From the sequence record MW331437.1: a DNA stretch of 44,551 nucleotides; one strand, given 5' to 3'. Below are positions 4,165 through 42,159 of the stretch, piece by piece. The stretch comes from Escherichia phage phiWAO78-1. Each line of letters starts with the position of its first letter. The stretch's first letter is position 1. The notes beneath the pieces are model-generated. The model was not told the DNA's origin and searched no databases. It saw only the letters and a program-made list of their open reading frames with translations. Position numbers and translations under genes: made by a program.

Positions 4165-4195
4165 TTCTAAATTCCTTATCTCTCGTTTCGATAAC

Positions 4196-4228
4196 TGAAT
4201 AGTACCCTATTATATTGGGGTCTGCAAA
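4196..4228 (-). promoter_or_regulatory. Class-1 conserved promoter-like element, copy A (TTGCAG-N17-TACTAT with AATAG-N4-CTATT dyad)
   Basis: 33-bp element shared with copies at 6082, 15681, 37611, 39002; about 35 nt upstream of the minus-strand ATG at 4164. Confidence 0.6.
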
Positions 4229-4271
4229 TATTATTTTTATGCGTTACACTGGCGATACCACAGGAGGGCAT

Positions 4272-6055: not shown

Positions 6056-6081
6056 TTCTTCTCTCCTCTTGTTGGTGTGAA

Positions 6082-6114
6082 TGAATAGTACCCTATTATA
6101 TTGGGGTGTGCAAA
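6082..6114 (-). promoter_or_regulatory. Class-1 conserved promoter-like element, copy B
   Basis: TTTGCACACCCCAATATAATAGGGTACTATTCA on the minus strand; the best match to the family consensus. Confidence 0.6.
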
Positions 6115-6179
6115 CTATTTGTTTACGTATTCCAGTTATTCAACTGATTTGTAAATGATGGAATAAACTATTCGAATAG

Positions 6180-6208
6180 TTGACTTTTCACTAAAAATGT
6201 GCTAAGCT
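6180..6208 (+). promoter_or_regulatory. Candidate sigma70 promoter (TTGACT-N17-TAAGCT) preceded by palindrome CTATTCGAATAG
   Basis: Good -35 with 17-nt spacing and a weak -10; palindrome 6168-6179 abuts the -35. Confidence 0.3.
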
Positions 6209-6214
6209 CCACCT

Positions 6215-6412
6215 GAGCTTGTGAAGTATGAACAAGCGACCGCGGCGCGGGCAGGTAACGGAGCGGGACGTAAGTCCTGAGTGTAGTTACGCTGACGCGT
6301 TCGGAAGGGCCGTACTCTATTGCTTGTGTAAAAAGTAACTGGTTTACTGAGATTACGCCGTTTCTATGTTTAAATGATAAGGCCTAGCGCCCCGCTTTAC
6401 GGCGGGGCTTTA
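6215..6412 (+). ncRNA. Candidate small non-coding RNA or leader transcript (about 200 nt)
   Basis: Promoter-like element at 6180-6208 and intrinsic terminator at 6389-6415 bracket a region with no ORF of 60 aa or more (only a 36-codon basic ORF from 6228 lacking a clear SD). Confidence 0.25.
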
Positions 6413-13813: not shown

Positions 13814-14298
13814 TATTTATCGCTCCCATGTGATTTTAAGCGTGTAGAGTTCCCGTTACAGTCGTATTCAGTAACCGCGTGCGTCGTGATTCCTAAGCCA
13901 CGGAAATGCTTAATCACCGCTGGCGAGTCGTCGAATGCACACAAGATTCTTTCCAGTCCGATAGCGCGCAACACCTCTTCTTTAATTACGATGTCTTTTC
14001 TGTTGTCGTGTTTGCTACGCATGATTAACTGATAAAATTCGACGCGGTGGCGCTGCAGCCACATTCTGGTTTCTTTTTCTGCATCATCACTGCGACCGGT
14101 TAAAATAATAACGGCGTATCGCCGATTAAGGGCGTTACATAGTTCGATATTATCTCTAATTGGCTCATCGTCTTTGCACGCCATGTTAAATGGCCTCCAA
14201 GCCCATGTTTCGCCGTAGTTATCTTTTGGCAGCAGGTGTAAACGATGTGTACCATCTGCTAATGTCCCGTCTAAATCGAAAATTACAATATCTTTCAT
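13813..14298 (-). CDS. HAD-superfamily phosphatase/hydrolase
   Basis: N-terminal motif I IFDLDGTLADG (DxDGT nucleophile motif) typical of HAD phosphatases. Confidence 0.6.
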   Translation of the reverse strand: MKDIVIFDLDGTLADGTHRLHLLPKDNYGETWAWRPFNMACKDDEPIRDNIELCNALNRRYAVIILTGRSDDAEKETRMWLQRHRVEFYQLIMRSKHDNRKDIVIKEEVLRAIGLERILCAFDDSPAVIKHFRGLGITTHAVTEYDCNGNSTRLKSHGSDK

Positions 14299-15317
14299 CC
14301 CAGCATCTCCGGTGAAATAGTTAAACGCGCAACCTCGCCATATTTGGCGCTATAAGTAATTACATTTGCGCTACGGCCCGACATCCATCCGCCGCGGGAG
14401 GCGTAGGCGTCTTTAGCCGCTAAGGTGCGGTGTTGCTCAACAATCATGTTACGGCTTTCTACAATCTTCTGATGGTGCAGGTGACCTACGTGTGCGTAGC
14501 TGTAGACGCTCTCGCCGAACGCTTTGCGGAACTTGGCAATCATAACTGGTTCGATAGCGTCGAATCGCGCCTTGTGTCCGTGGGTAAAGAACAGCGTCGT
14601 TTTGCCGTGCTGCACCATCTTGTAAACATCCGGCGACGTATCGACGAACACACGCGGCTCATTGTCGTACAGCGTACTGAACATCTCAGCCAACCAAATC
14701 ATACCCGATTCGTCGTGGTTCCCTTGCACGATAAGCAGTCGGACGTTTTTATGTTTAACGAGCGCCATATCAACAACACGGCGTACCATACGAATCATGT
14801 AGCGGACAAGTTTCTGATAACGGGTGTCGGCGTCAAGAGCGTGACCGCTTGCAGGTGTAACGGCAACCAGACTATCGAAGTGCGCGAAGTCGCCTAGCAG
14901 GTTAATAACTCCGGTCCCAGCGTCCGGCGCTTTCTGAAACGCCTCGTCGAACCATCGGGAGAACAGGCCCTCCGCGATTTTCATATCCCAGTCGTCGCCG
15001 CTCTCGTCGGCCCAGGCCAGCATACCGAGATGGAAATCAGACACAGTGTAAAGATTGAGTAGTTTATCGTCGCGTTTGGCGCGAATGGTTTTAACAGGTG
15101 CAACGGGGGTAATCTCTGACTTCATGCCTTCAATTACGGCTTTCATCAACTCGACCTGACGTTCGGCGTCGGTTTCTGTCTTAACCCATTGCAACTTAGT
15201 ATTGCCGAGTTCGTCCACCAGAGACGACGTCCCCTTAATCTTGTAGCCGTCCGGGACAAGGTGACTAACGTCGCGACCGTGACCTACGCCTTTCTTGGCC
15301 AGCTCGCTTTCGGACAC
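14295..15317 (-). CDS. Calcineurin-like metallophosphoesterase
   Basis: Ordered motifs D-x-H (VSDFHLG), GD (LLGDFAHFD), GNH[DE] (VQGNHDE), FTHGH and GHLHH; GTG start; roughly 80-aa N-terminal extension before the first motif. Confidence 0.7.
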   Translation of the reverse strand: MSESELAKKGVGHGRDVSHLVPDGYKIKGTSSLVDELGNTKLQWVKTETDAERQVELMKAVIEGMKSEITPVAPVKTIRAKRDDKLLNLYTVSDFHLGMLAWADESGDDWDMKIAEGLFSRWFDEAFQKAPDAGTGVINLLGDFAHFDSLVAVTPASGHALDADTRYQKLVRYMIRMVRRVVDMALVKHKNVRLLIVQGNHDESGMIWLAEMFSTLYDNEPRVFVDTSPDVYKMVQHGKTTLFFTHGHKARFDAIEPVMIAKFRKAFGESVYSYAHVGHLHHQKIVESRNMIVEQHRTLAAKDAYASRGGWMSGRSANVITYSAKYGEVARLTISPEMLG

Positions 15318-15423
15318 GAATTACGCGGTCTGAGATGCCGTATTTACGGGCTATATCGATAGTTTTAACTCCGGCGTTCAATTCTTCCTGTAATTGTTCG
15401 TCGGTTATTTTCTTCTGGGCCAT
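15265..15423 (-). CDS. Small HTH-containing protein (52 aa), overlapping the 5' end of the metallophosphoesterase ORF
   Basis: ATG 15423 with GAGGAAG SD; sequence TIDIARKYGISDRVIRVRKRA looks like a helix-turn-helix; different frame from 14295-15317. Confidence 0.3.
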   Translation of the reverse strand: MAQKKITDEQLQEELNAGVKTIDIARKYGISDRVIRVRKRAGQERRRSRSRR

Positions 15424-15653: not shown

Positions 15654-15680
15654 TTTAAACCCCTTCGTTGTCGGTGTAAG

Positions 15681-15713
15681 TGAATAGTACCCTATTATAT
15701 TGGGGCGCGCAAG
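15681..15713 (-). promoter_or_regulatory. Class-1 conserved promoter-like element, copy C
   Basis: CTTGCGCGCCCCAATATAATAGGGTACTATTCA on the minus strand, about 30 nt upstream of ATG 15653. Confidence 0.6.
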
Positions 15714-15819
15714 TAATGTGATAGAATAATTTTGCGCCTAGTGTCGCACACGAAAAGCGGGTGGTTCCCGTCTGGCGCAACACCATCAACCAGTAACCTC
15801 TTAACCAAAGGATTAAAGA

Positions 15820-26936: not shown

Positions 26937-27620
26937 TTAGACATGATTAGCCTCGTAAACTGCTTTTGCGAAACCCCGCGGAGTAAGGCTGCGGATTGTT
27001 TTTGTTCTGGCGCTCTTTCCGCCGAGTTTAGCCCAACCAGGGTTATCTCCGCTGCCCACGGCAACCTCGGCAACGTCGGGCATAACAAACCCATTTCCGA
27101 CCCACAGGCACGTCTTTTTAACATATGCGTCCCGCGCCGGGATAACGTCAGGGAACATTGGATGGGTGTCGTCTTCGGGTAAATAGCCGCCGTATTCGTA
27201 CGGGTTGAACGCGTAGTCAGGCTTACGCCATAAAGACGAAAGAACGCTAACAGGGTTCTCAATCATATAAGGTACGTTGTACTTTTTAGCCAGACGCGCC
27301 GCCACTTTGCATGTAATCACGGCCTCTACCTGGAACGTCGGATTCTTCTTCCGCTTCGTTTCAAAATGCGCCGCGCCGCTAACGGCTAAATCTGTGCACG
27401 GAGGGAACTCGAAAATAATATCCGGCGCGACCTCGAAGTCGAATTTATTATCAATCCACGCGTTTATATAGTGGATATTTTCATGTTCAACTTTTGCGCC
27501 CAATCGTGCGTAGTCTCCGTGGTCGGCGCCGTCGTAGTTGAAACAATAGCAAGTATGGCCCGCTTCTGCCCACGGTTGGGCCATAAGGCCCGAGCCGTCA
27601 AACAATGACCAGACAATCAT
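26937..27620 (-). CDS. DNA (cytosine-5)-methyltransferase-like protein
   Basis: FxGxG (SLFDGSGLM), PC motif (FPPCTDLAVSG) and ENV-like (MIENPVSV) in the canonical order; short (227 aa), so target-recognition region is small. Confidence 0.5.
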   Translation of the reverse strand: MIVWSLFDGSGLMAQPWAEAGHTCYCFNYDGADHGDYARLGAKVEHENIHYINAWIDNKFDFEVAPDIIFEFPPCTDLAVSGAAHFETKRKKNPTFQVEAVITCKVAARLAKKYNVPYMIENPVSVLSSLWRKPDYAFNPYEYGGYLPEDDTHPMFPDVIPARDAYVKKTCLWVGNGFVMPDVAEVAVGSGDNPGWAKLGGKSARTKTIRSLTPRGFAKAVYEANHV

Positions 27621-27808
27621 TTCGCCACCAGCACCAATTCTTTACGCCCGAACGCTGTAACGTTACCGGTTACATCTTCAATAACCAGTTTACCGTTCGA
27701 CTCGACGTATACCGTATCAACGGCAACAGGCCGACGGGTCTTAACGTTGAAAATCATGTCGTCCGGTACGAGGTCACGTGCTGGTTTGCGGTCGTATTCG
27801 TGTTTCAT
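27617..27808 (-). CDS. Hypothetical small protein
   Basis: 63 aa ORF with GGAATTGAG SD behind promoter H; start/stop overlap with the methyltransferase gene. Confidence 0.4.
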   Translation of the reverse strand: MKHEYDRKPARDLVPDDMIFNVKTRRPVAVDTVYVESNGKLVIEDVTGNVTAFGRKELVLVAK

Positions 27809-27838
27809 TTCTCAATTCCTTATATTGTTGGTGTGTGA

Positions 27839-28138
27839 TTAACTATAATAGTTCGCTATTAGGTCGTCAACTTGTTTAAACGATCCGACGACAAAAACAT
27901 TTGCGCCACGTTTACGCATACGCTCATGTTCTCGCAGCTGGTGCGGGTCAGGCTTCGTGTTTTCGTCTTTCTTAACCTCGACGAACCAGATGATGCCGCC
28001 GGGGAGGATTACTAGCAGGTCAGGAGCGCCGGAGCGCCCCTCGAAGGAAAGTTTACGAACGAGGCCACCAATGGCCTCGAATCGCTCTTTTGCGTATTTC
28101 TGTACGCGCCCCTCTTTAGTCATGAGCGCAGAACCCAT
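27839..28138 (-). CDS. VRR-NUC domain nuclease
   Basis: 99 aa with PD-(D/E)XK-type core (APDLLVILPGG...FVEVKKDEN...HQ) characteristic of VRR-NUC proteins. Confidence 0.65.
   Translation of the reverse strand: MGSALMTKEGRVQKYAKERFEAIGGLVRKLSFEGRSGAPDLLVILPGGIIWFVEVKKDENTKPDPHQLREHERMRKRGANVFVVGSFKQVDDLIANYYS
27842..27870 (-). promoter_or_regulatory. Class-2 promoter H: TTGACG-N17-TATAGT with AATAG-N4-CTATT dyad in the spacer
   Basis: Near-consensus sigma70 hexamers at optimal spacing, read on the minus strand; about 30 nt upstream of ATG 27808. Confidence 0.6.
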
Positions 28139-28272
28139 GTAAGGAAAGCCCCTCCTAGAACGGCAACACCGACAAACTTAAAGAACAGGCCGTAACAGAA
28201 CATCGCAGCTATTCCTGCACCGAGTAACAGTGCGAGCATGGTTACTATCGTCCAAAATACAAACATTGTCAT
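28120..28272 (-). CDS. Small hydrophobic membrane peptide (50 aa)
   Basis: Translated by hand; GGAG SD; ATGA overlap with upstream gene; two hydrophobic segments. Confidence 0.3.
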   Translation of the reverse strand: MTMFVFWTIVTMLALLLGAGIAAMFCYGLFFKFVGVAVLGGAFLTWVLRS

Positions 28273-28472
28273 AACAAAGGCTCCGCATCCGGGTTACGCA
28301 GGAAGTACGCTTGATAGATGTCGTGTTCCGAATAGTAAACACCTTTGTGTGTGCACCCCGCACAAACGTCACTAAAGAACCCATCACCCATTACCATGAT
28401 AAATTCCCATTCCGGCGTATCCACTAACGCGGCTAGCTTCTTACTAAATGGTTTGTTACTCATAATACGCAC
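28269..28472 (-). CDS. Hypothetical small protein
   Basis: 67 aa ORF in operon context with translationally coupled neighbours. Confidence 0.35.
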   Translation of the reverse strand: MRIMSNKPFSKKLAALVDTPEWEFIMVMGDGFFSDVCAGCTHKGVYYSEHDIYQAYFLRNPDAEPLL

Positions 28473-28666
28473 CCCTCACGTTTCGTATGCTCAATATCAC
28501 AGCGCGGGCAGATTCGACAGTCTTCTTCGTATAACCAGTATATTTTCATTCCAGCACCCACAAATAAATTGCGATGAACATGCCTAATACAGCGACAATC
28601 ATGCCGTATTGGCCTTCGTGACAGTAGACACCGGCGGCGAATCCCGCCAGTACCGCGATAATCAGT

Positions 28667-30847
28667 TTACTTGGCATAACGTTTTAACTCCTGACCTTCC
28701 GCTACAAGAGGGAACCCCTCGGCCCACTCTGGTAATTCGCACATCAACCGTTCCAGTTCTGCGACATTGTATTCCGGTGAATCTGGTGTCTCGCAGATAA
28801 TCTCATCGTGTACGTGAAGCACAATCGGGTAGCCGTTTGCTTCAACGTTCAGCAGTGCATTAGCCAGCAAATCACGGCACAGCGCCTGAGTGCAGTTTTC
28901 CACCAGTTTACCGGAGTAGGTGTACTGGAAGCCCCACTGACGGGTTAGCTGATTTTCGCCCTGGTACTTGATGCGCACGTTAGTAGACACCTTCCCATCT
29001 TCGTCTGTCTCTTTCGACACGCTCAATCCTACGCCCGGGTAAGACATAACGCGACCTGACGGCAGCGTCATACGCAACCACCAACCGGCGACTTTGTTGC
29101 CGTTGTTGTCTGTCTCCGCGTTACGCGAAAACTTAACCCCCCGCGGCCCTGCGGTGAACTCTTTACCAGGATTGCGGATAGCTGCCATAGCCGCGTCTTC
29201 AATATCTCGCCAGAAAGCTACGGTTTCCGGGTGGGACTCACGCCACATGCGTTTGATAGCGTCACAGGTACGCCACACTTTCTTATCAAGAATATATGAT
29301 GGTCGGTCATCCTTTTCACCGGGACGCGGAGGTCGCTTGGCCTCCTGAATGCGCGCCCACTCGTATCCGCGTGCGGTAGCAGCCCATATATGGTCGGGGA
29401 AAGTACCGTCCATTGTTTTAGCCATATCAACGAGGTCAAGGCCGAGGTTCTTAGCAAACTGAACGAAAGCACCAACACCACCTGCGTAGCCGAGGCCCAA
29501 TTCACAGGCTTTACCAATCTGGCGTAAGTCTTTACGTTCCTTCTTAATGTAATCTGGATCCATGCCGAACATCTTACCTGCGGTTACGCAGTAAATATCA
29601 AGACCGGCGCGGAACGTATCGAGTGCGGTTTCTTCTCCTGCCAGCCATGCCAACCCGCGGCCTTCAACGTTAGAGTAATCGGCAACAACAAACTTATGCC
29701 CAGCTTCCGGTATGATGCAACTACGAACCGTCGATGCCGTTAGTTTGGCTACATCGAAACGGCGATGCGCGCGGCCCTTAAGTAACGCAGAAATCCCTTT
29801 ATCCAGTTCATCATCGTGATAGTACCCGCGTGCCAGGTTCTGCGGCTGGAAGCCTTTGCCAGCAAACCGTAGCGTACGCTTTGCCCCGCCATACTGGATG
29901 CAACCGCGACGGCGGTCGTCAGACGAGCGACCCAACAGCAGCGGGTTATATTTCGTTGACGCGGTGGACGCGGCCCCGAGGCGCATTTCGATAATAGTGC
30001 GGGCGTCGTCAGGTAAATCATCATCAGCCAACAGGTCGTTAAGCGTTGACTTCTGCGCGTTGTGGATGCGGTGCGCTGGTGCAAGTTCACGCAGAATCGG
30101 AAGGAAGTCTTTACCTGTAAGCGAGCCGCCGTATTTGCGTTGGGCTTCTTCTTGTAACTGCGCCTTGTGTTTCTCTACGGCTTCAATCGCGGCTTCTGCC
30201 AGTGCAACGTCAACCTTAAACCCGCGGTCATTGATTAACTGGTCAAGTTCCAGTACACGGTCTTCGAACTCGGAGTTACCCCACCGCGGCAGCTTATGGA
30301 ACACTTCACGCATCGCAGTGATGTCGCTCACGGCGTACTTGATGAACAGCGCCCACTCGTCCGGGTGTGTTTCAGCGGTGTAACGGCGGATTTTGTAGTT
30401 CTTCGGTGTCGGTTTAGAGAAACGCTGAATCAGCGCCTTACCACGTTTGTCTTTTGCATTGTCAGCAGACACCCCCAGCACTTCACACAATGCGTCAAGT
30501 GAACCCGGCAACGCGTGACGAAACGCCCAAATCATCGTATCAATGGTGTTGCTTACCGGAATATCAAAGCCCCAGCAGTGCTTCATGATGAGCCTATCGA
30601 ACATTGAGCCGTTGTGCCACACCATCTTGATGCGGCTGTTCGGCTTCACCAGGCGGCGTAACGCGCGGTGTAAATCTCCCGGCATGTCGCCGCCGTCGGT
30701 GCAATCCCACACCTGCACAGGCTCGTCATCAAAAGCATAGGTACAGATTAGCACTTCGGTAGTTGGATGTTCGGCGTAGGCATAAGAACCGACTTTCTTT
30801 AAATCGGCTTCGGAGAATGTTTCAAAGTCTAAGAACAGGTAACTCAT
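28667..30847 (-). CDS. DNA polymerase, family A, with 3'-5' exonuclease domain
   Basis: Exo I FLDFETFS, pol motif A DYSNVEGR, motif B RQIGKACELGLGYAGG, motif C LHVHDEI. Confidence 0.9.
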   Translation of the reverse strand: MSYLFLDFETFSEADLKKVGSYAYAEHPTTEVLICTYAFDDEPVQVWDCTDGGDMPGDLHRALRRLVKPNSRIKMVWHNGSMFDRLIMKHCWGFDIPVSNTIDTMIWAFRHALPGSLDALCEVLGVSADNAKDKRGKALIQRFSKPTPKNYKIRRYTAETHPDEWALFIKYAVSDITAMREVFHKLPRWGNSEFEDRVLELDQLINDRGFKVDVALAEAAIEAVEKHKAQLQEEAQRKYGGSLTGKDFLPILRELAPAHRIHNAQKSTLNDLLADDDLPDDARTIIEMRLGAASTASTKYNPLLLGRSSDDRRRGCIQYGGAKRTLRFAGKGFQPQNLARGYYHDDELDKGISALLKGRAHRRFDVAKLTASTVRSCIIPEAGHKFVVADYSNVEGRGLAWLAGEETALDTFRAGLDIYCVTAGKMFGMDPDYIKKERKDLRQIGKACELGLGYAGGVGAFVQFAKNLGLDLVDMAKTMDGTFPDHIWAATARGYEWARIQEAKRPPRPGEKDDRPSYILDKKVWRTCDAIKRMWRESHPETVAFWRDIEDAAMAAIRNPGKEFTAGPRGVKFSRNAETDNNGNKVAGWWLRMTLPSGRVMSYPGVGLSVSKETDEDGKVSTNVRIKYQGENQLTRQWGFQYTYSGKLVENCTQALCRDLLANALLNVEANGYPIVLHVHDEIICETPDSPEYNVAELERLMCELPEWAEGFPLVAEGQELKRYAK

Positions 30848-30863
30848 TATTTTCGACCCTTAG

Positions 30864-30887
30864 TAAAAAGGCCCAATGAAGGGCCTT
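30864..30887 (-). terminator. Rho-independent terminator on the minus strand (AAGGCCC-TTCATT-GGGCCTT + TTT)
   Basis: Stem-loop about 20 nt downstream of the minus-strand gene ending at 30907. Confidence 0.55.
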
Positions 30888-30906
30888 AGTTAAATTGATT
30901 CAGATA

Positions 30907-31533
30907 TTAGCGGCGACGACGTTCGCGGCGTGGTGCTTCATCTTCTTCGTCGTCTTCGAGGTCATCGACGCTCGCAGCAACTTTAGAACCACCGAACGCT
31001 TTACCTTCACCGACGTATTTAATCGCCAGCAGGTTAACACCGAGAACTTTGTATTTCTGGCTGAACCAGATTTCAACGCTTACGTTAGCGACGCAGCCGC
31101 TGTAAACCTGTTCACCTTCAATCTGTTCGCCGTCTACGTTGAAATCCTGTTCTACCTGAGTCTCGCCTTTTTTAGATGTTACGATCAGTGGCTGTTTCTG
31201 TGCCTTCGCTTTGAAGTAGAAGCCTTCCGGGAAATCTTCAAACGGATTGTCGCGCTCGGCAATGTCTTTAATCGCACATTTATCCATGTGCTTTCCTTCG
31301 CCGTAGTTTGACTTCATCCACTTCTCGGCGGCGGCAGCACCTAATGCTTCTTCAACTACAGCGTAAACAGTGTCGTAGAGCGCATCGATTTGCGCATGGT
31401 CAGACGGCAGGATAATAGTCGCGCTGTACTGACCCTTAGTGATTGAGCCATCGTCGTTTTCACGGTCTTTTTCGCGTTCGAATACGTTAACCCATGCAGT
31501 GTTTACTTTACGCAGATTCAGTTTAATACCCAT
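30907..31533 (-). CDS. Single-stranded DNA-binding protein-like (putative)
   Basis: 208 aa with strongly acidic C-terminal tail (DDLEDDEEDEA) as in many SSBs; adjacent to Cas4-like nuclease and DNA polymerase; family assignment by context and memory. Confidence 0.45.
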   Translation of the reverse strand: MGIKLNLRKVNTAWVNVFEREKDRENDDGSITKGQYSATIILPSDHAQIDALYDTVYAVVEEALGAAAAEKWMKSNYGEGKHMDKCAIKDIAERDNPFEDFPEGFYFKAKAQKQPLIVTSKKGETQVEQDFNVDGEQIEGEQVYSGCVANVSVEIWFSQKYKVLGVNLLAIKYVGEGKAFGGSKVAASVDDLEDDEEDEAPRRERRRR

Positions 31534-31591
31534 CTTGATTTCTCGCTTTTAGGTTTCGTCTACTCCGGGAGCTGCCCGGCCAGTGATTATA

Positions 31592-31620
31592 AATATAATA
31601 GCTAACTATTCAGGTGTCAA
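31592..31620 (-). promoter_or_regulatory. Class-2 promoter F: TTGACA-N17-TATATT with AATAG-N4-CTATT dyad in the spacer
   Basis: Consensus -35 and near-consensus -10 at 17-nt spacing on the minus strand upstream of 30907-31533. Confidence 0.6.
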
Positions 31621-31624
31621 CACT

Positions 31625-31828
31625 TTATTTAAGTTTCTTCGGAACTACCTTATAAATATAGGGCTGCACCGCCTCATGCTTTGAGTTCTTCTCTTCTGCA
31701 ATTTTGTCGGCGTCGGCGCGTTTAGCGTGAACAGAAACAATATCAAGTTCTTGAATGGAGTATCGGCGGTGATACCGCGTGAGAATATAAACCATCATTC
31801 TAAATCCTCCTCTGTTACCTGATTCCAC
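31625..31828 (-). CDS. Hypothetical small protein
   Basis: 67 aa ORF overlapping the 3' end of the upstream nuclease gene. Confidence 0.35.
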   Translation of the reverse strand: MESGNRGGFRMMVYILTRYHRRYSIQELDIVSVHAKRADADKIAEEKNSKHEAVQPYIYKVVPKKLK

Positions 31829-33060
31829 TCAGGACGTTTGTCGTCTGCCGTTGCAACACATGGCACCCCTGGCTTGCGTGTTATAAATGGTTCAAGCGCC
31901 GCCATCTCATCTGCCGAAAGAACTTTTGCTGCCTCCGTAGGGGACATCAATACCTCTTTTTTGAGAATGTCGCCGTGTGATACTTTAATAGCATCGGCAT
32001 CTTTCCACGCACGATTACCCGGGCGACCCTCAACCAGTTTGTACCCCAGCACTTTCTTACCGGAATGCAATGCAGCAGCCATAGCTTTCTCAACCTTGTC
32101 GATGTGCTGGCGCAACAACGGCAACTTCTCATACTCAGCTACGAGTTGCTCCAGCGTAAGTTCCAACGCAAAGTCGTCTTCCAGTTCTTCCGCCAGTACC
32201 GCGTTAACGGTTTTTGTACGCGCGGCGCACTGTTCGGAGAACCGACACCACTGGCAACCATCTACCGACGGCCTGAAGTCTGACGTTTTCAGGTTCTTCT
32301 TGCCACGGGAATAGGCATCAAGGGCCAACAGTGCACGTTTCTGTGCGAACTTAGCAAACAGTTCAAGGCCTTCAACCGAGATGTCCCACTCCGACGCGCC
32401 ACCAGCATACGGCTGGAAGATTACCAGACGCACAACTGTGATGTTATAACGTCTCTTGAGTCTGCGATAAACACCGAGAGCATAGAGCATAAGCTGCTTG
32501 TTTTCTTTCGCTTCGACACGATGTCGTCCTGTTTTAAGGTCGGTGACATTGAGGATATGTTCGTCTGTGTTAGCCTTTTCAAGAACGGCAACAAGGTCGG
32601 CTGTTCCGAACGTCTCGACGCCTTCATACCCCGGATGCAATACCTCAGTAAGATTTACGCGCATTTCCAGCTTGGCGTAAGTAGCAACGTCTATAATCGC
32701 TTTGCAGTAGTCGGTGTACTTGCGCACCTGCTCAATCATGTCAGCCGTAATCAGTACCGCGCCTTTCATCGGGCTTATTAATGCCTTAATCTGGCCTTTA
32801 CCTTCATCCAGCACGTAAGCACCAACTTCACGCTCTAACGGCAACGCAGTGCCTTTGATGTACTGGTTTAGATGAATCTCGGCTATAGTGTGCATCGCTG
32901 TGCCTAATACCGCGGCTTTACCTGACGTGTTAGGAATATCTTTTTCACACGCCAGTGATGCCGCGCAACTTAGCCACTTCTTAGCACCTGACGGCGACAG
33001 CAGGGCGTGTACGTCGTTATTGCCGCCGCGTTCCTTTAAAATCATACCCTGTTCTCCCAC
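31795..33060 (-). CDS. PD-(D/E)XK nuclease, Cas4/RecB-like exonuclease (putative recombination exonuclease)
   Basis: 421 aa; N-terminal LSPSGAKKWLSC, and C-terminal Cys cluster CQWCRFSEQC typical of Cas4-like Fe-S nucleases. Confidence 0.65.
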   Translation of the reverse strand: MGEQGMILKERGGNNDVHALLSPSGAKKWLSCAASLACEKDIPNTSGKAAVLGTAMHTIAEIHLNQYIKGTALPLEREVGAYVLDEGKGQIKALISPMKGAVLITADMIEQVRKYTDYCKAIIDVATYAKLEMRVNLTEVLHPGYEGVETFGTADLVAVLEKANTDEHILNVTDLKTGRHRVEAKENKQLMLYALGVYRRLKRRYNITVVRLVIFQPYAGGASEWDISVEGLELFAKFAQKRALLALDAYSRGKKNLKTSDFRPSVDGCQWCRFSEQCAARTKTVNAVLAEELEDDFALELTLEQLVAEYEKLPLLRQHIDKVEKAMAAALHSGKKVLGYKLVEGRPGNRAWKDADAIKVSHGDILKKEVLMSPTEAAKVLSADEMAALEPFITRKPGVPCVATADDKRPEWNQVTEEDLE

Positions 33061-33314
33061 TGGTCAATTAAATGTCGTGTCTTATGGTCACAGTGCATAG
33101 CCCACCCATACATCGACTCGAAGACATAAAAGTCAGGCTTGGCGAAAGTCGTGCGCTTAATCTGCGACACGTGACGGCCTATATCTTTAGGCCGTGGTAC
33201 TTTGCCCAGGTACGCCATCTCTTCCATCTGATGCGCACCGGACGGCGCACGCAACAGCCACAACGCCTCCATGTTATCCCGCCTGTCAACGGCGCGGTAG
33301 AGTTGGTAAATCAT
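33042..33314 (-). CDS. Hypothetical protein
   Basis: 90 aa ORF in the early operon with overlapping start/stop. Confidence 0.35.
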   Translation of the reverse strand: MIYQLYRAVDRRDNMEALWLLRAPSGAHQMEEMAYLGKVPRPKDIGRHVSQIKRTTFAKPDFYVFESMYGWAMHCDHKTRHLIDQWENRV

Positions 33315-33553
33315 TCCGCGTTCCTCGCTTCCAGCATTGCGTCTGCCATGATGTACGCCATTTGCGCTACTTGCGCGGTGTTCCCCGCGGCCACAGGGTG
33401 CACTGCATCCGCTGGGTAACTAGCAAGCCACCCTTGAAGGGCTTTAGCCGCGAAATAGTCACGTAATGTCATACCGTCTTCCGTAGTCCAATCTGAGTTG
33501 TAGTCCACGTTACCCAACATAGGGAAAGCCTGTCCGCCTGTATTTTTACACAT
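33311..33553 (-). CDS. Hypothetical protein
   Basis: 80 aa ORF in the early operon. Confidence 0.35.
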   Translation of the reverse strand: MCKNTGGQAFPMLGNVDYNSDWTTEDGMTLRDYFAAKALQGWLASYPADAVHPVAAGNTAQVAQMAYIMADAMLEARNAE

Positions 33554-33573
33554 AATTACGACCCTCAGTTAAA

Positions 33574-33589
33574 GCGGCCCGAAGGCCGC
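33574..33589 (-). terminator. Weak terminator-like hairpin (GCGGCC-CGAA-GGCCGC)
   Basis: GC stem after the gene ending at 33597; poor U-tract, so efficiency doubtful. Confidence 0.3.
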
Positions 33590-33596
33590 CGGATAG

Positions 33597-34118
33597 TTAT
33601 TCTTCTTCGAAATACTTGTTCTTGATTGCTGTCAGGCGTTCCAGATATTCAGCCAGGTCTTCGTCTTTAATCGCGGCAATCTTCATCTTCTTACCGGTGA
33701 ACTCTTCCAGCAGTTCATCGGAATCATCACACGCGGCGTCGCTCGGACCTTCGTTAATCGCGTCGTCGATAGCCTGAATCTGGTCACGCAGAGACTTATA
33801 GTCTACTTCTTCTTTCTCTTCTTCCGGCTCTGGAGCAGGCTCCTCTACTTTAGCTTTACGCGGCTTGCGTTTCGGCTTCTCTTCTTCTGCCGGTTTAGTG
33901 TCAACGATGTCTTCGCCCTCGACTGGGAGTTCTTTCGCTTTCTCGACTTCTTCAAGTGCTTTAGCCAGTTCTTTTTTAACTGTTTCTACCCCCGTGACCG
34001 CGACGTCAACGGTTAATTCACCTACTGATTTGCCGTTTTGCGGTTTCACGCTATTCGCAGCAATCAGTTCATGCGCAACTACGAAACGTTCCAGTAATAC
34101 TAAGAATTTCTCTAACAT
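33597..34118 (-). CDS. Highly acidic early protein (hypothetical; possible DNA mimic)
   Basis: 173 aa, very Glu/Asp-rich with one basic patch; first gene downstream of strong promoter G. Confidence 0.45.
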   Translation of the reverse strand: MLEKFLVLLERFVVAHELIAANSVKPQNGKSVGELTVDVAVTGVETVKKELAKALEEVEKAKELPVEGEDIVDTKPAEEEKPKRKPRKAKVEEPAPEPEEEKEEVDYKSLRDQIQAIDDAINEGPSDAACDDSDELLEEFTGKKMKIAAIKDEDLAEYLERLTAIKNKYFEEE

Positions 34119-34149
34119 TTGTTTCTCTCCTCTCGTTTGGTATGGGTTA

Positions 34150-34179
34150 ACTATAATAGCTAACTATTCAGGATGTCAA
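34150..34179 (-). promoter_or_regulatory. Class-2 promoter G: TTGACA-N18-TATAGT with AATAG-N4-CTATT dyad in the spacer
   Basis: Consensus -35 and near-consensus -10 on the minus strand; divergent from the XRE-type regulator gene. Confidence 0.6.
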
Positions 34180-34243
34180 CGGGCTTTTCTAAAATAATTA
34201 ATATGGTACTATTCACATATCAACTGACTAAGGAGTAACTGAC

Positions 34244-34459
34244 ATGCAACCATCTGAACTAGGCATCCGTGTAGAGCAACGCCGTAAAGAACTCGGCATC
34301 TCCCAGCGCCGTCTGGCAGTCCTGACCGGCGTTTCCCAGGGCGCAATTAACCAGCTGGCACTTGGGGTAACTCAGGACGTCCGCCCGGCGACGCTGTTTA
34401 AACTGGCGGAAGTGCTGCAAGTAGACGCGAAGTGGCTGGCGCTAGGTGAAGGGGCTTAA
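34244..34459 (+). CDS. XRE-family helix-turn-helix transcriptional regulator (Cro/CI-like)
   Basis: 71 aa; ISQRRLAVLTGVSQGAINQL is a classic XRE-type HTH; AAGGAG SD; divergently transcribed from the early operon. Confidence 0.7.
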   Translation: MQPSELGIRVEQRRKELGISQRRLAVLTGVSQGAINQLALGVTQDVRPATLFKLAEVLQVDAKWLALGEGA

Positions 34460-34476
34460 TGCCCCTTTCTTTTTAC

Positions 34477-36717
34477 CTATTCCAAATCATCCTCTGTCAC
34501 CACCAGCATTTCATTCGGTTCGTATATTGTCTTTGGCCTCAATCTGTCGCCCATCTTTTCAGGTATCCGGTATGTGCCTGGTATAACTTCACCGTTAACA
34601 TCGCACCCGAGCATCAACTCACCGTCTTTCAGCATCTTCTCAAGATGGTGGTTGGTGATGGCGTGGTCCCCCGAGTTCGCCACTATCTGCCGTTGGGTAA
34701 AACCTCGTCCGGTGTCGTCGGACTGTTGCAGGTCTTCCAGCGCGGCGAGTATTGATTCCTTACGCCCTTCATCCTTCCCGCGTTTTACAGCATTCTTTAC
34801 GTTTTCTTTACCTTCTTTAGTTAACCCTTCTTCCCGCTCCTTCTCCTCGTCAGTTTTGAACGGCTCGAAGCCCCACGGCATCAGCACAAGCGCCTTGTGC
34901 GGCTCAGGCAGATCGAGGTTTACGATTGTGCCGTATTCCTCTGTGCAGCCGAGGAACTCAACAGCGCGATACTCTTTCGGCGGCGGAGCCTCACGGAACT
35001 GTACCGACTCCAGCACCATGCCAACCGTTTTCTGTTGAGGCCCGTGCTTAAATTTAGAGTGGTATACGTTTATCTGGCGGTCGGTCGCACGCTCAATTGT
35101 TAGCTCCACGTCGACACCCGCATACAGTGCCCCACTACCTCGGGCTTTCTTTCCACCCTTCGGAGTATGGTGGACAACACCCACCGCGGCTTTGGTTGCA
35201 TCACGCACTTCTTTCAGGATGGCAATGACTTTACCCATGCCGATTGCCGTCGATGAACTGTTCTCGTCGAACTTATCAATCGTCAGGGCCAGCGTCTGGT
35301 TAAGGGTGTCGAAGGCAACCATGCCAATTGGCTCGTCGCCTGCGGTTTCGCGCATTAGCTTAATAAGGCTTTTCAGTTTTCCAACTTCACCCATGTCGAT
35401 AACATGTACATAATCTTTACCTTCCTCGCCGTATTTAGCCGCGAGTGCGTCGATACGGGTGCGTGTAGCTGCGCCCCCCTCACCGTCAATATAGAAATGG
35501 TGGCAACGCTGGGTGTCGGCCCCGGCAAACCGGTATCCGGCAGCACTAAGGTACATCATACCCAGCGTATAGAATGATTTGTACGTGCCAGATTCCCCGA
35601 CGATGCCCCAGATACAATCCGATGGCATGTACCCTTCAACGACGAAATCAGCCTTTACCGGTTCTGGTAGCTCGTCCTCCTCTGGGTCATCGTCGTCTTC
35701 CAGGTCGTCGAGGCTGCATGAAACAGATTCACGCGCACCCCAGCCGATAGCCTCTGCGACTTCACTGAACGGCAGGCCAGTCGCATCGCACGCATATTTC
35801 CACACCTCTTTCGGCGACATACCTTCGGTTGCCATAATGTCGGTGTCGTGAATCATGGTTACGTTCGGCGCTTCATATCCTTCACGCGGGAAACACAGCA
35901 GGAAGTCGTCCGGACGCGGCGTCGGGTCGCTGTAGTTTTCTGCATGCTCTGGTGTGGCTGGCATCTTAAGGCCGCGTGGTGTCATAACACCGCCGTACTC
36001 GAACGCCAGTGCCTCAAACGCATCAGTAAACGCAGTGCGCAGTTCTTCCGGTATCTGGTAATCCGATGCGCTGCTCACCTCATAATCCGGTACGCCTTCC
36101 AGTAACTCGTCCGGGTCAATCAGGTCGTTGCGGCGCGACCAGATAACGGTAGAGCCTACCGGTGGCAGGTACATCGGTTGTGACAGAGTGAACCCGCTGC
36201 GGTCGGCGCCCATGCCTTTGAAGAAGTGCTCCAGCAATCCATGACGAACACGAATGATGTCACCGCCCTCAACCGTTCGGGCCAGCGGCATGACGACGCG
36301 AAAGCGCGGGGCTTCGTCTGTGTGTGATGCCGTGGTATAGAGGCACATCGCCCGCCGGCTGCGCTTAACCAGGCGCACAGCTTCCTGATACTCTTCCAGG
36401 GTTGCACTGTCAAAGTCCAGGTACGCCAGCGACGATTTGCTTACAGACGCGTCGCAGCGATAGAAAAAGCCTTTACGCGCTTGCTTAAAGTCACCTGTTT
36501 CCGGGTCTTTTACGGTGCTGTGCGTAGAGTCGCACGCGGCGGTGATGTAGCCAGGCGCGGTCTTCGAGTTAATCCCGTCACGGACGGCATCGAGCGGCTG
36601 GATTAAATCTTTCAGGTCGTCCAGTGTTGCCGTGTGTGTCGTTCTGACGTTTATATCCTTTTTCTCCGCCCTCGCGTTGCGACGGGACCACGAGTAGGAT
36701 AAAATCACATCGGACAT
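34477..36717 (-). CDS. DNA primase/helicase (RecA-like P-loop ATPase with N-terminal primase-like region)
   Basis: 746 aa; Walker A GIVGESGTYKS and downstream RecA-fold features in the central domain; size and context of phage primase-helicases. Confidence 0.7.
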   Translation of the reverse strand: MSDVILSYSWSRRNARAEKKDINVRTTHTATLDDLKDLIQPLDAVRDGINSKTAPGYITAACDSTHSTVKDPETGDFKQARKGFFYRCDASVSKSSLAYLDFDSATLEEYQEAVRLVKRSRRAMCLYTTASHTDEAPRFRVVMPLARTVEGGDIIRVRHGLLEHFFKGMGADRSGFTLSQPMYLPPVGSTVIWSRRNDLIDPDELLEGVPDYEVSSASDYQIPEELRTAFTDAFEALAFEYGGVMTPRGLKMPATPEHAENYSDPTPRPDDFLLCFPREGYEAPNVTMIHDTDIMATEGMSPKEVWKYACDATGLPFSEVAEAIGWGARESVSCSLDDLEDDDDPEEDELPEPVKADFVVEGYMPSDCIWGIVGESGTYKSFYTLGMMYLSAAGYRFAGADTQRCHHFYIDGEGGAATRTRIDALAAKYGEEGKDYVHVIDMGEVGKLKSLIKLMRETAGDEPIGMVAFDTLNQTLALTIDKFDENSSSTAIGMGKVIAILKEVRDATKAAVGVVHHTPKGGKKARGSGALYAGVDVELTIERATDRQINVYHSKFKHGPQQKTVGMVLESVQFREAPPPKEYRAVEFLGCTEEYGTIVNLDLPEPHKALVLMPWGFEPFKTDEEKEREEGLTKEGKENVKNAVKRGKDEGRKESILAALEDLQQSDDTGRGFTQRQIVANSGDHAITNHHLEKMLKDGELMLGCDVNGEVIPGTYRIPEKMGDRLRPKTIYEPNEMLVVTEDDLE

Positions 36718-36775: not shown

Positions 36776-37009
36776 TTATTCCAGGTCTTCTAAAGTAGCG
36801 GCCATTCCGCGAACTTCAGCAACAGCGCTATATCTCCCGCCAACATTTTTCACGACACCGGATTTAACCAGTACCTTTAACGACCCTTCAATAATGGCTG
36901 AACTATAGTACTTAAAATAACTACGGCGCAAGTCGATAACGCTGCATGACCCTTTTTTACGTGTTAATGAAACGACTGCCGTAAACACTCGTGATTGAAA
37001 CTCAGTCAT
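36776..37009 (-). CDS. Hypothetical protein
   Basis: 77 aa ORF overlapping the upstream HTH gene. Confidence 0.4.
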   Translation of the reverse strand: MTEFQSRVFTAVVSLTRKKGSCSVIDLRRSYFKYYSSAIIEGSLKVLVKSGVVKNVGGRYSAVAEVRGMAATLEDLE

Positions 37010-37176
37010 TTCACGTTCTCCTTAATCCACGCTTCCACTTTCTCTCGGTCAAACGTACCAGGCTGGCGGCGACCCATAATGCGGATACAACAATCCGGGA
37101 ACTTCCCACTCTTTAACCAGTTATTCAGCGTGCGACGAGTAACCCCGATACGCTCGGCTACCTCATTCTGCGTCAT
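37006..37176 (-). CDS. AlpA/excisionase-like HTH DNA-binding protein
   Basis: MTQNEVAERIGVTRRTLNNWLKSGKFP matches the AlpA-type HTH pattern; start at ATG 37176 with GAGGG SD (ORF open from 37209). Confidence 0.5.
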   Translation of the reverse strand: MTQNEVAERIGVTRRTLNNWLKSGKFPDCCIRIMGRRQPGTFDREKVEAWIKENVK

Positions 37177-37208
37177 TCTCAAACCCTCATTATCAGTTAA
37201 CGGAGGCA

Positions 37209-37237
37209 AGTATACATTGCGAATAGTGGGAAATCAA
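37209..37237 (-). promoter_or_regulatory. Candidate sigma70 promoter TTGATT-N17-TATACT for the AlpA-like gene
   Basis: Hexamers at optimal spacing on the minus strand; spacer contains a GAATAG half-site. Confidence 0.4.
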
Positions 37238-37541: not shown

Positions 37542-37610
37542 AGTTACCAAGTAATAAGAATAAAGGCACGACCCTCCCTAAAGAATCACAACGGCAACGT
37601 AACTATTCTC

Positions 37611-37643
37611 TTGCACACCCCAACATAATAGGATACTATTCAC
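37611..37643 (+). promoter_or_regulatory. Class-1 conserved promoter-like element, copy D
   Basis: TTGCACACCCCAACATAATAGGATACTATTCAC on the plus strand about 30 nt upstream of the first gene of the rightward small-ORF array. Confidence 0.6.
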
Positions 37644-37673
37644 TTATCGGAACGATACAGAGGAGTGAGGGTT

Positions 37674-38996: not shown

Positions 38997-39001
38997 AATT
39001 T

Positions 39002-39034
39002 CTTGCCACTGGGATAGAATAGGCTACTATTCAT
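39002..39034 (+). promoter_or_regulatory. Class-1 conserved promoter-like element, copy E (diverged)
   Basis: CTTGCCACTGGGATAGAATAGGCTACTATTCAT keeps TTGCC, the AATAG-N4-CTATT dyad and TACTATTCA; 27 nt upstream of ATG 39062. Confidence 0.45.
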
Positions 39035-39061
39035 TTACACAGACGAGAGGAGAGACAGAGG

Positions 39062-40132: not shown

Positions 40133-40426
40133 ATGGTACAGAGATATGAGTTAAAAGAAGACTGTGTTACCGGGCATATTGACTTAGAGGAAGATGCCGG
40201 CGGTGATTGGGTTGGCTATGAAGATTACGTAAAACTTGAAGCTGAACTTAGTGGACTTAAAGAGTGGCGGGCGCAGGTAATAGACGTTGCCTTAAAAGCG
40301 TCCGAGGAAGCACGCACCACGATAGCTAATCTCGAAGCCGAGTTACAGAAATACAAAGACCAGTTCCCGGATTACATCGAGTGCGCGAACTGTGGGTCAA
40401 TTACACATGTGGAAGGGGTGGAGTGA
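40133..40426 (+). CDS. Hypothetical protein
   Basis: ATG 40133 (ORF open from 40127). Confidence 0.4.
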   Translation: MVQRYELKEDCVTGHIDLEEDAGGDWVGYEDYVKLEAELSGLKEWRAQVIDVALKASEEARTTIANLEAELQKYKDQFPDYIECANCGSITHVEGVE

Positions 40427-40719
40427 TGTCGTTAGCAACTGACATCCTGAAACGAAGCGGCCTTGCGCCGCTGTCACCGAGAGCTAAAACACAGATATAC
40501 AAACGTCAGGGTAATGCGCTGTTCCCCGAGATTCAGGCCAGACGCAAAGCGGTCCGCGCCTGTGGATTCCAGAACGGGAAGGCCGTGAATCTCGGTGAGT
40601 TCAAAACGCAGGAACGCGCGGCTATCGCTAATCGGTTATTTAATTACTGGAAATCGCTGGGTTATGAAGATATTCCGACGAAACCACAGAGACGACAATA
40701 CATCTGGCGCCATAAATAA
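40426..40719 (+). CDS. Hypothetical protein
   Basis: ATG 40426 overlapping upstream stop (GTGATG). Confidence 0.35.
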   Translation: MSLATDILKRSGLAPLSPRAKTQIYKRQGNALFPEIQARRKAVRACGFQNGKAVNLGEFKTQERAAIANRLFNYWKSLGYEDIPTKPQRRQYIWRHK

Positions 40720-41831: not shown

Positions 41832-42044
41832 TGGACGAATATGAAGGCGTTTAGTATTCTGGTTAGGCCAAGTTTTTCGTATTTGCTAATGGAGGCCAAT
41901 ATGGCATTGCAAGAGTTCACTAACCCTGTTAAATCTCGTGATGATATCGACGAGTCTATTGGTTACGGCGAAGGTTGACACCTAAGAGTGATCCGACGAT
42001 ACTTAAATTACCTCCTGTTCCATCCCTCTGCTCTCCAGTTTTAT

Positions 42045-42074
42045 CCCGGCCCTGACCCAGCCGGGATTTTTTTT
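42045..42074 (+). terminator. Strong rho-independent terminator (CCCGGC-loop-GCCGGG + T8)
   Basis: 6-bp GC stem followed by eight consecutive T residues. Confidence 0.75.
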
Positions 42075-42159
42075 ATCTATTTTCTGCAATGACTAGTTGA
42101 CTATTACTCTGACACCAATTATATTTACTCCATCGACAACGAGAACGGAGTAGGCAGAA

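Follow-up and report, generated by a model that had tools for sequence, protein, structure and literature searches.

The 44,551-nucleotide stretch of DNA from Escherichia phage phiWAO78-1 (sequence record MW331437.1; hereafter the window) carries three strong sigma70-type promoters, termed P1, P2, and P3, that contain between their -35 and -10 hexamers an exact copy of the inverted repeat (dyad) AATAG-N4-CTATT. The presence of the dyad in these promoters is real and strongly non-random. In the reading that is favored here, with a probability of roughly 0.5, the dyad would be the operator of a dimeric phage-encoded protein that represses P1-P3, with an XRE/Cro-like helix-turn-helix (HTH) protein as the likeliest binder, and this operator would belong to about 11 sigma70-type promoters.

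A dyad in the spacers of three strong promoters

An earlier note on this DNA had placed three minus-strand promoters with a shared dyad at 27842-27870, 31592-31620, and 34150-34179, and an independent scan recovered them at exactly these positions, with 10/12, 11/12, and 11/12 matches to the consensus, respectively. The promoters and their dyads are as follows:

27870..27842, minus strand: promoter P1, TTGACG-N17-TATAGT, 10/12 consensus; reads TTGACG-ACCTAATAGCGAACTAT-TATAGT
31620..31592, minus strand: promoter P2, TTGACA-N17-TATATT, 11/12 consensus; reads TTGACA-CCTGAATAGTTAGCTAT-TATATT
34179..34150, minus strand: promoter P3, TTGACA-N18-TATAGT, 11/12 consensus; reads TTGACA-TCCTGAATAGTTAGCTAT-TATAGT
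27847..27860, no strand assigned: P1 dyad, AATAG-CGAA-CTATT
31597..31610, no strand assigned: P2 dyad, AATAG-TTAG-CTATT
34155..34168, no strand assigned: P3 dyad, AATAG-TTAG-CTATT

A neutral consensus scan returned P2 and P3 as the only 11/12 matches in the whole window, and all three promoters show the near-consensus -35 and -10 hexamers and the spacers (17, 17, and 18 bp) of the sigma70 type. The dyad is exact in each of them and fills promoter positions -25 to -12, its last T being the first base of the -10 hexamer. The form that the earlier note had described for all three spacers, CCTGAATAG-N4-CTATT, is found in P2 and P3, but P1 reads CCTAATAG-CGAA-CTATT. Exact copies of AATAG-N4-CTATT number 8 in 44.5 kb versus 0.047 expected from 300 dinucleotide-preserving shuffles (maximum 2 copies), and copies with at most one mismatch number 12 versus 1.06 expected. 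The dyad also ranked first de novo in an unbiased count of all 5-N(0-10)-5 inverted repeats, ahead of terminator hairpins, with 8 copies here, 7 in phage K1H, and 4 in phage Jersey.

The assignment of the three promoters to replication and recombination genes in the earlier note was likewise borne out. P1 is located within the last 10 codons of a VRR-NUC gene (27839-28138) and is followed by a 63-amino acid open reading frame (ORF; 27617-27808) and by genes for a DNA methyltransferase, a helicase, and a Toprim-like protein. P2 is followed by the gene of a Gp2.5-like single-stranded DNA-binding protein (SSB; 30907-31533) and then by that of DNA polymerase; a terminator hairpin (AAGGCCC..GGGCCTT) lies between these two genes at ~30868-30890, and P2 transcripts therefore probably mostly end past the SSB gene. 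Downstream of P3 are genes for an acidic 173-amino acid protein (33597-34118), ORFs 33311-33553 and 33042-33314, and a PD-(D/E)XK exonuclease (31795-33060). The leaders of P1-P3 are ~25-52 nt long and their ribosome-binding sites read AAGGAA or GAGGAG.

Two observations on RNA hairpins can be added to this description. GC-rich hairpins similar to that behind the SSB gene delimit gene blocks at ~5781, 13234 (bidirectional in the scan), and 24842. The SSB leader itself (31560-31580, minus strand) holds a conserved hairpin, CCGGG-loop-CCCGG, with a loop that varies in relatives and a stem that is flipped to CCCGG/CCGGG in phage Tsm2; it is not thermodynamically exceptional (z = 0.27). Possible roles are those of a translational operator and of a site at which the SSB message is processed.

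Conservation of the dyad among related phages

A megablast search with window positions 27000-35000 matched 461 phage records, the top matches (88-91% identity) being the Escherichia Kagunavirus phages UTEC10, BUCT825, K1H, and Bas70-74, followed by hundreds of Salmonella Jersey-like phages. By its sequence, the window is the complete or near-complete genome of a Kagunavirus-like virulent siphophage of the subfamily Guernseyvirinae. No RNA polymerase gene is annotated in K1H, Jersey, Bas74, Tsm2, TS6, or phiEap-2, and none was found in the window, where all ORFs of at least 400 amino acids were checked (terminase, portal, tape measure, tail, tailspike, helicase, polymerase, exonuclease, and primase-helicase). 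All transcription must therefore use the host enzyme.

For comparison, 36 related loci were gathered from IMG/VR via the SSB protein, and the genomes of K1H, Jersey, Bas74, Tsm2, TS6, phiEap-2, and JL1 were added. Orthologous promoters were found by BLAST of their 430-bp surroundings, that is, by flanking homology and not by the motif, which yielded 105 orthologous promoter copies from 35-37 genomes. P1-P3 are present in every locus that reaches their site (P1 in 35/35 and P2 in 37/37), and P2 is also present in Tsm2, phiEap-2, and TS6. Over the 105 copies, the mean minor-allele frequency was 0.007 at the 10 positions of the dyad arms, 0.037 in the -35 hexamer, 0.028 in the -10 hexamer, 0.173 in the 4-bp center, and 0.14-0.165 in the flanks; the difference in variability between arms and center is pronounced (Mann-Whitney p ~8e-9). 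Each promoter has 6-10 distinct 4-mers at its center (10 at P1, whose right arm is invariant) and 4-11 variants of the linker between the -35 hexamer and the dyad. The length of the N4 center and the distance from the dyad to the -10 hexamer are constant in all 105 copies, and changes in spacer length (17 versus 18 bp, as in P3) are confined to the linker. Variants of the arms are single and one-sided (ACTAG, AGTAG, CTACT, CGATT, and GTATT), and no paired compensatory arm changes were found among the promoter copies compared.

The free center, the fixed spacing, and the one-sided arm variants together indicate the footprint of two protein half-sites and not that of a hairpin. Two marks of an operator are seen, namely symmetry with a fixed spacing of half-sites and arms that are more constrained than center and flanks, and neither the demands of promoter function or of coding nor recombination homology or a nucleic-acid hairpin would be expected to leave this pattern of substitutions. 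An RNA structure was also rejected by the absence of Rfam hits, by the position of the dyad upstream of the start site in P1-P3, and by the missing compensation noted above. That some protein binds the dyad is thus considered highly probable.

P1, P2, and P3 are in addition mosaic joints in loci L002-L037. The sequence directly upstream of the -35 hexamer of P2 is of at least four unrelated kinds, and in some relatives the conserved leader and ribosome-binding site of P1 or P3 are separated from the first gene by an extra small ORF inserted exactly at that junction. Such repeated promoter-leader cassettes may serve as recombination points for module exchange.

The dyad is not confined to Kagunavirus. 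All six dyad sites of Jersey (6/6) are on promoters with a recognizable -35 hexamer; its head and capsid operons have no dyad. Serratia phage Tsm2 has three sites, two exact and one 9/10, in orthologous P1-type, P2, and reverse-type promoters (the last described below), and Enterobacter phage phiEap-2 has a slightly degenerate form, AATAG-N4-GTATT. In Salmonella phage TS6, which shares the GTATT arm with phiEap-2, the dyad has decayed, and it is absent from the Dhillonvirus JL1, whose polymerase is 65% identical. The dyad therefore travels with the phage lineage. JL1 (L043) and TS6 (L040) each have a repeated dyad of their own: TTGGT-N5-ACCAA at 6412, 9496, and 39844 in the former and TATTA-N6-TAATA at 872, 22955, and 29675 in the latter. 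Two of the three TS6 copies are in TTGNNN-N17-TAATAT promoter contexts, and the third adjoins a TAATAT -10-like box. These sequences hint at the same design with a switched specificity.

Further copies of the dyad and their registers

The earlier note had equated the spacer dyad with a repeat found in ~35-bp elements that it called class 1, and this identity stands, as AATAG-N4-CTATT is the core of all five. These elements span 4194-4230, 6080-6116, 15679-15715, 37605-37644 (minus strand), and 39000-39035 (minus strand). Together with three 9/10 copies, the promoter-associated dyads outside P1-P3 are:

4198..4211, no strand assigned: class-1 dyad within the ~35-bp element TGAATAGTACCCTATTATATTGGGG..GCAA; reverse reading TTGCAg-N17-TACTAT, facing a small divergent gene
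6084..6097, no strand assigned: class-1 dyad; reverse reading TTGCAC-N17-TACTAT
15683..15696, no strand assigned: class-1 dyad between a superinfection-immunity gene and the tail operon; reverse reading TTGCGC-N17-TACTAT
37627..37640, no strand assigned: class-1 dyad; plus-strand reading TTGCAC-N17-TACTAT
39018..39031, no strand assigned: class-1 dyad; plus-strand reading TTGCCA-N16-TACTAT, 9/12; relatives vary freely in the far half of this element
6175..6188, plus strand: 9/10 dyad AATAG-TTGA-CTTTT before the capsid operon; center and right arm form the -35 hexamer of TTGACT-N17-TAAGCT
42092..42105, plus strand: 9/10 dyad ACTAG-TTGA-CTATT over the -35 hexamer of TTGACT-N17-TATATT (10/12), before the nin-like and terminase block
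34200..34213, no strand assigned: 9/10 dyad AATAG-TACC-ATATT, invariant in Kagunavirus relatives

In their reverse readings, the class-1 elements are sigma70-type promoters of the form TTGCAC-N16/17-TACTAT that have the right dyad arm within the -10 hexamer and that point toward small divergent genes, with a short leader and a strong ribosome-binding site like those of P1 and P3. Four of the five also have a forward promoter that is poor in its -35 hexamer, has a TATATT -10 hexamer, and holds the dyad in the same register to the -10 hexamer as do P1-P3; three of these four forward promoters face head or tail (structural) operons. Conservation of the forward -10 hexamer and the adjoining GGGG is limited to the four sites with a gene in the forward direction; at the 39018-type site both drift. 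From these readings, class-1 elements resemble pairs of oppositely directed promoters with a single dyad in common.

Of the 9/10 copies, that at 6175-6188 belongs to a promoter at 6180 that is listed as host promoter HP1 for phage fBC-Eco01 (PMC9825357, Suppl. Table S2). The copy at 42092, on a promoter at 42097, has a counterpart in Jersey with its mismatch on the opposite arm (AATAG-TTGA-CTAGT), and the half-site is therefore A[A/C]TAG. The copy at 34200 covers what is likely the promoter of the XRE gene, an extended -10 sequence on the plus strand (TG-g-TACTAT, 34204-34212). Counted from the end of the -35 hexamer, the dyad thus occurs in three registers: at -11, over the -35 hexamer (6175 and 42092); at +4/+5, in the spacer (P1-P3); and at +9 to +11, with the right arm in a TACTAT -10 hexamer (37627, 39018, and, at +11, Jersey 39910). 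As the three registers place it on different faces of the helix, the dyad is a module in its own right that does not depend on contacts of RNA polymerase. In all 11 promoter-associated copies there is overlap with the -35 hexamer, the spacer, or the -10 hexamer, and this overlap with the core promoter is their sole common denominator.

Candidate binding proteins

The proteins of the window that were considered as candidates include:

34244..34459, plus strand: XRE/Cro-like HTH protein, 71 amino acids, divergent from P3; leading candidate binder
37006..37209, minus strand: HTH_17 (AlpA/excisionase-like) protein; judged an unlikely binder
40426..40719, plus strand: basic 97-amino acid protein, encoded ahead of the holin genes, whose core may be of the AP2-like DNA-binding type; weak candidate

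The XRE protein matches Pfam HTH_3 (E=1.1e-12), and among solved structures it comes closest to 434 Cro (71 amino acids; E=7e-6) and 434 repressor (E=1.3e-5). It thereby combines the ~70-amino acid HTH_3 domain of a 434 Cro-like protein with similarity to the 434 proteins themselves. Homologues occur in 540 phage records, essentially all from Guernseyvirinae, and the gene is a core gene that always adjoins P3 and is divergent from it. The Gln that opens helix 3 is retained in all five genera, and the HTH segment is invariant even among Kagunavirus variants that are 75-79% identical overall; a search for more distant homologues returned only Kagunavirus-like proteins, all with an identical HTH. 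The proposal that the dyad is bound by XRE is nevertheless tentative and stands at somewhat less than an even chance, for reasons that are weighed below. The 98-amino acid ORF that follows the XRE gene (34459-34755, plus strand) lies on the strand opposite the primase-helicase gene. It matches no family, its similarity in relatives is low and patchy, and it probably does not represent a gene.

The other two regulators put forward in the earlier note fared less well. The HTH_17 protein, its AlpA-like candidate, has 56-67 amino acids and a MerR_1 match (E=8e-4) that is below the Pfam cut-off. It was not detected by tblastn in L023, Tsm2, or TS6, and it was rejected as the binder since it is variable (72-98%), gives way to other genes in L023, a relative with at least six dyads, and is undetected in dyad-bearing Tsm2. 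The "small HTH" protein at 15265-15423 is no stand-alone regulator but the N-terminal piece of a DNA-repair exonuclease, which K1H, Bas74, and Jersey encode as a single 376-amino acid ORF. Here, the exonuclease gene (14295-15423, minus strand) is frameshifted into 15265-15423 (52 amino acids, HTH-like) and 14295-15317 (340 amino acids), which is either a sequencing error or a real disruption.

A 90-amino acid protein (33042-33314) that is 97% identical in Jersey was also rejected, as its AlphaFold2 (AF2) model (pLDDT 92.7) matches no DNA-binding fold. Finally, the dyad was considered as a loading site for an antiterminator of the Q/AlpA type. Such loading needs a segment that enters the RNA-exit channel and a sigma-dependent pause element in the initial transcribed region. 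This possibility was rejected because the HTH_17 protein is dispensable and has no N-terminal extension if it starts at Met12; among relatives, no conserved -10-like hexamer was found downstream of +1 in P1 or P3.

A proposed promoter-embedded operator and its alternatives

Under the favored reading, P1-P3 would act as strong host-RNA-polymerase promoters of three leftward replication/recombination operons. A dimer bound to the dyad would collide with sigma regions 2 and 3, hold the spacer, or slow open-complex formation, and build-up of the regulator would bring about a coordinated turn-down of P1-P3. Comparable promoter turn-down is exerted by Cro in lambdoid phages and by Arc at P22 Pant. 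The promoter of the XRE gene, with its weaker 9/10 dyad, could in this way be subject to negative autoregulation. Repression is preferred as the outcome because the dyad overlaps core promoter elements in three registers, and the overlap with other sigma70-type promoters in the two registers not used by P1-P3 argues for steric repression over face-specific or MerR-like activation. If a protein does bind, its effect at P1-P3 is judged to be negative with moderate confidence.

Several points weigh against this interpretation or parts of it. The recognition helix of the XRE protein differs by genus (SQGAINQ in Kagunavirus, SQSLITH in Jersey, SQGMLNH in Tsm2, and SQGRVSH in phiEap-2) and also in TS6, and the protein is only 48% identical overall to that of Jersey, whereas the dyad is one and the same in Kagunavirus, Jersey, and Tsm2. 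Moreover, the Jersey dyads closest to the XRE gene are the most degenerate. A change of the recognition helix without a change of the operator, together with the degenerate sites in Jersey, weakens XRE as the binder. The class-1 forward promoters, being in the register of P1-P3, suggest that a bound protein may be compatible with transcription or even needed for it, and the strict register could have been inherited through duplication of one promoter cassette. In the literature searched, no transcriptome, transcription start site map, footprint, or regulator study of Guernseyvirinae was found.

The forward class-1 promoters invite the opposite reading, in which the spacer-bound dimer is an activator that aids polymerase in the P1-P3 register and replaces a -35 contact. 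At class-1 elements, it would work as a temporal switch that shuts the leftward early promoters (TTGCAC-N17-TACTAT) and turns on the rightward, -35-poor head and tail promoters, while P1-P3 would stay on or be boosted late. The forward promoters share the geometry of P1-P3 (AATAG-N4-CTAT/TATATT) and have poor -35 hexamers (TCGATA, GTGTAA, and GTGTGA); no other promoter candidates precede the head-morphogenesis and tail blocks, which have bidirectional terminators at their borders; and their -10 hexamer with GGGG is kept only where a forward gene is present. In Jersey, however, the head and capsid operons are without a dyad and the dyad before the tail operon is without a usable forward -10 hexamer (TATTAA/TAACGG), such that dyad-dependent late activation is not conserved, unlike the dyads on -35-bearing promoters. 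In addition, three different registers cannot all activate, a half-site at -16 to -12 takes up the groove that sigma region 3 uses, TCGATA-N17-TATATT, with its 9/12 matches, may fire unaided, and no PHROG "transcription regulation" or Pfam late-activator match was obtained among the ~50 window proteins scanned. Activation from the spacer is consequently regarded as unlikely. It is quite unlikely, too, that register decides the effect, with one dimer silencing promoters from over the -35 or -10 hexamer and cooperating with polymerase from -25 to -12 in a genome-wide temporal switch; if true, P1-P3 would be kept running, class-1 elements would flip from leftward early genes to the rightward head and tail promoters, and this would be a spacer-bound activator on normal 17-bp spacers, neither MerR-like nor class I/II. 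Another explanation dispenses with a trans-acting factor and makes the spacer an intrinsic part of a duplicated cassette, kept for its conformation, for -10-like sequences on both strands, or as recombination homology. The right arm and the -10 hexamer read CTATTATAGT, the complement of which holds a perfect TATAAT, both arms of the class-1 elements run into -10-like hexamers, a ~32-nt stretch is nearly identical between P2 and P3, and the promoters are mosaic joints with at least four upstream contexts at P2 and optional ORFs after the P1 and P3 leaders. Homology or common ancestry would also conserve the center and the linker, yet these are 25-fold more variable; the dyad also turns up in three registers, and the promoters that carry it have unrelated flanks. 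The left arm of P1-P3 forms no reverse -10 hexamer, since its -12/-11 bases would fall in the freely varying center (CGCTAT, AACTAT); an origin of the dyad from two opposed -10 elements, which fits class-1 elements, was rejected for this failure at P1-P3. RNA polymerase is not known to make a sequence-specific contact at -25 to -21, and a dyad without a dedicated factor is seen as distinctly improbable.

The remaining alternatives differ in who would read the dyad. A host (enterobacterial) transcription factor exploited by the phage would account for the same dyad in phages of Escherichia, Salmonella, Serratia, and Enterobacter and for the diverging recognition helix of the phage XRE protein, and the arm variants ACTAG and CTAGT resemble the TrpR operator, ACTAG-TTAA-CTAGT. 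TS6, however, has lost the dyad despite sharing its host genus with Jersey, and of the E. coli regulators whose consensus was compared, namely ArgR, Cra, OxyR (ATAG-N7-CTAT), MntR, SlyA, Fis, Lrp, and TrpR (which needs CTAG), none fits AATAG-N4-CTATT; a host factor is accordingly considered very unlikely. The earlier note had raised MerR-like remodeling of P1-P3, which would fall to the HTH_17 protein by virtue of its weak MerR_1 similarity and of the dyad lying between the -35 and -10 hexamers. Here, the spacers are an optimal 17-18 bp in the window and in all relatives, not 19-20 bp, the dyad is off-center and touches the -10 hexamer, and the protein is too small for a dimerization coiled coil or an effector domain and is missing where dyads persist (L023 and, as far as detected, Tsm2), so that such remodeling is highly improbable. 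The least credible alternative, with next to no probability, is that the dyad is a promoter for a phage-encoded RNA polymerase. It derives from the report on fBC-Eco01, which lists seven PHIRE repeats (consensus tgAATAGTa-ccTATTat-T), among them the P1 ortholog, as phage RNA polymerase promoters (PMC9825357, Suppl. Table S2). The PHIRE repeat finder assigns this label by default, and neither the window nor the six annotated relatives have a gene for such an enzyme.

Prior descriptions, similar systems, and significance

The fBC-Eco01 element is the same sequence in a close relative, where it was presented only as a repeated 20-mer; its dyad nature, its position in sigma70 spacers, and the P2 and P3 copies went unnoticed. 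The P1 and P2 orthologs are annotated as sigma70-like promoters in the GenBank record of Jersey (NC_021777). The literature on Kagunavirus and Jerseyvirus promoters, on the MB78 promoter, and on transcriptomes yielded only genome reports, and no description of the dyad as an operator was found there.

In kind, the dyad system is probably an ordinary promoter-embedded operator that is new in its particulars. Arc at P22 Pant, known from work of the Sauer laboratory, offers a close parallel in layout: a dyad operator between the -35 and -10 hexamers of a strong sigma70 promoter and a small phage repressor that hinders open-complex formation. Arc differs in its ribbon-helix-helix fold, in its tetrameric binding to a 21-bp operator, and in its control of a single promoter pair, as against the ~11 sites found here, and no ribbon-helix-helix protein was identified in this phage. 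The 434 Cro/repressor system resembles the present one in its protein, as XRE has 71 amino acids and keeps the Gln with which helix 3 begins, and in its 14-bp operator with conserved outer bases and a free center, to which AATA-N6-TATT is equal in length; the XRE gene is also divergent from an operator-bearing early promoter. The arms differ (AATAG here versus ACAA in ACAA-N6-TTGT), the sites are distributed over the genome and not clustered as in OR/OL, the phage is virulent and without a CI partner, and the recognition helix varies between genera that share the dyad. MerR-family promoters (merT, copA, and zntA) have in common with P1-P3 a dyad in the -35/-10 spacer, but theirs is centered and fills a spacer of 19-20 bp, whereas the 17-18 bp spacers and near-consensus hexamers seen here need no remodeling. 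Class-1 elements alone bear a likeness to the phi29 p4 early/late switch and to the Lpa system of bacteriophage P1 in the divergent, overlapping early and late promoters, the single regulator site, and the -35-poor late promoters. Lpa-dependent late promoters of bacteriophage P1 have a palindrome near -22 instead of a -35 hexamer. Promoters P1-P3 of the window, in contrast, have full -35 boxes, and the class-1 arrangement is not conserved in Jersey.

Guernseyvirinae, which include the Jersey-like Salmonella phages and the Kagunavirus coliphages, belong to the phages isolated most often for therapy and food safety, and no study of the timing of their gene expression was found in the literature. 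These phages depend on host RNA polymerase, and nearly all of their recognizable promoters carry the one conserved 14-bp putative operator; a model of one regulator acting at ~11 sites would provide a first handle on gene regulation in this subfamily. The published label of phage RNA polymerase promoters is corrected at the same time. P2 and P3 are compact, near-consensus, and probably repressible promoters that could be used in phage engineering, and the putative operator is a possible handle for switching a therapeutic phage on or off.

A further promoter of the window, at 41975-42075 (plus strand), has no dyad. It reads TTGACA-N17-GATACT and is followed ~35 nt on by a strong intrinsic terminator (CCCGGCCCTGACCCAGCCGGG + T8), with a predicted transcript of ~65 nt that is C/U-rich (ACCUCCUGUUCCAUCCCUCUGCUCUCC). 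This transcript could be a small RNA complementary to early-gene leaders of the GAGAGGAGAG type. The same pair of promoter and terminator is listed for fBC-Eco01 as HP5 and T21 (PMC9825357).

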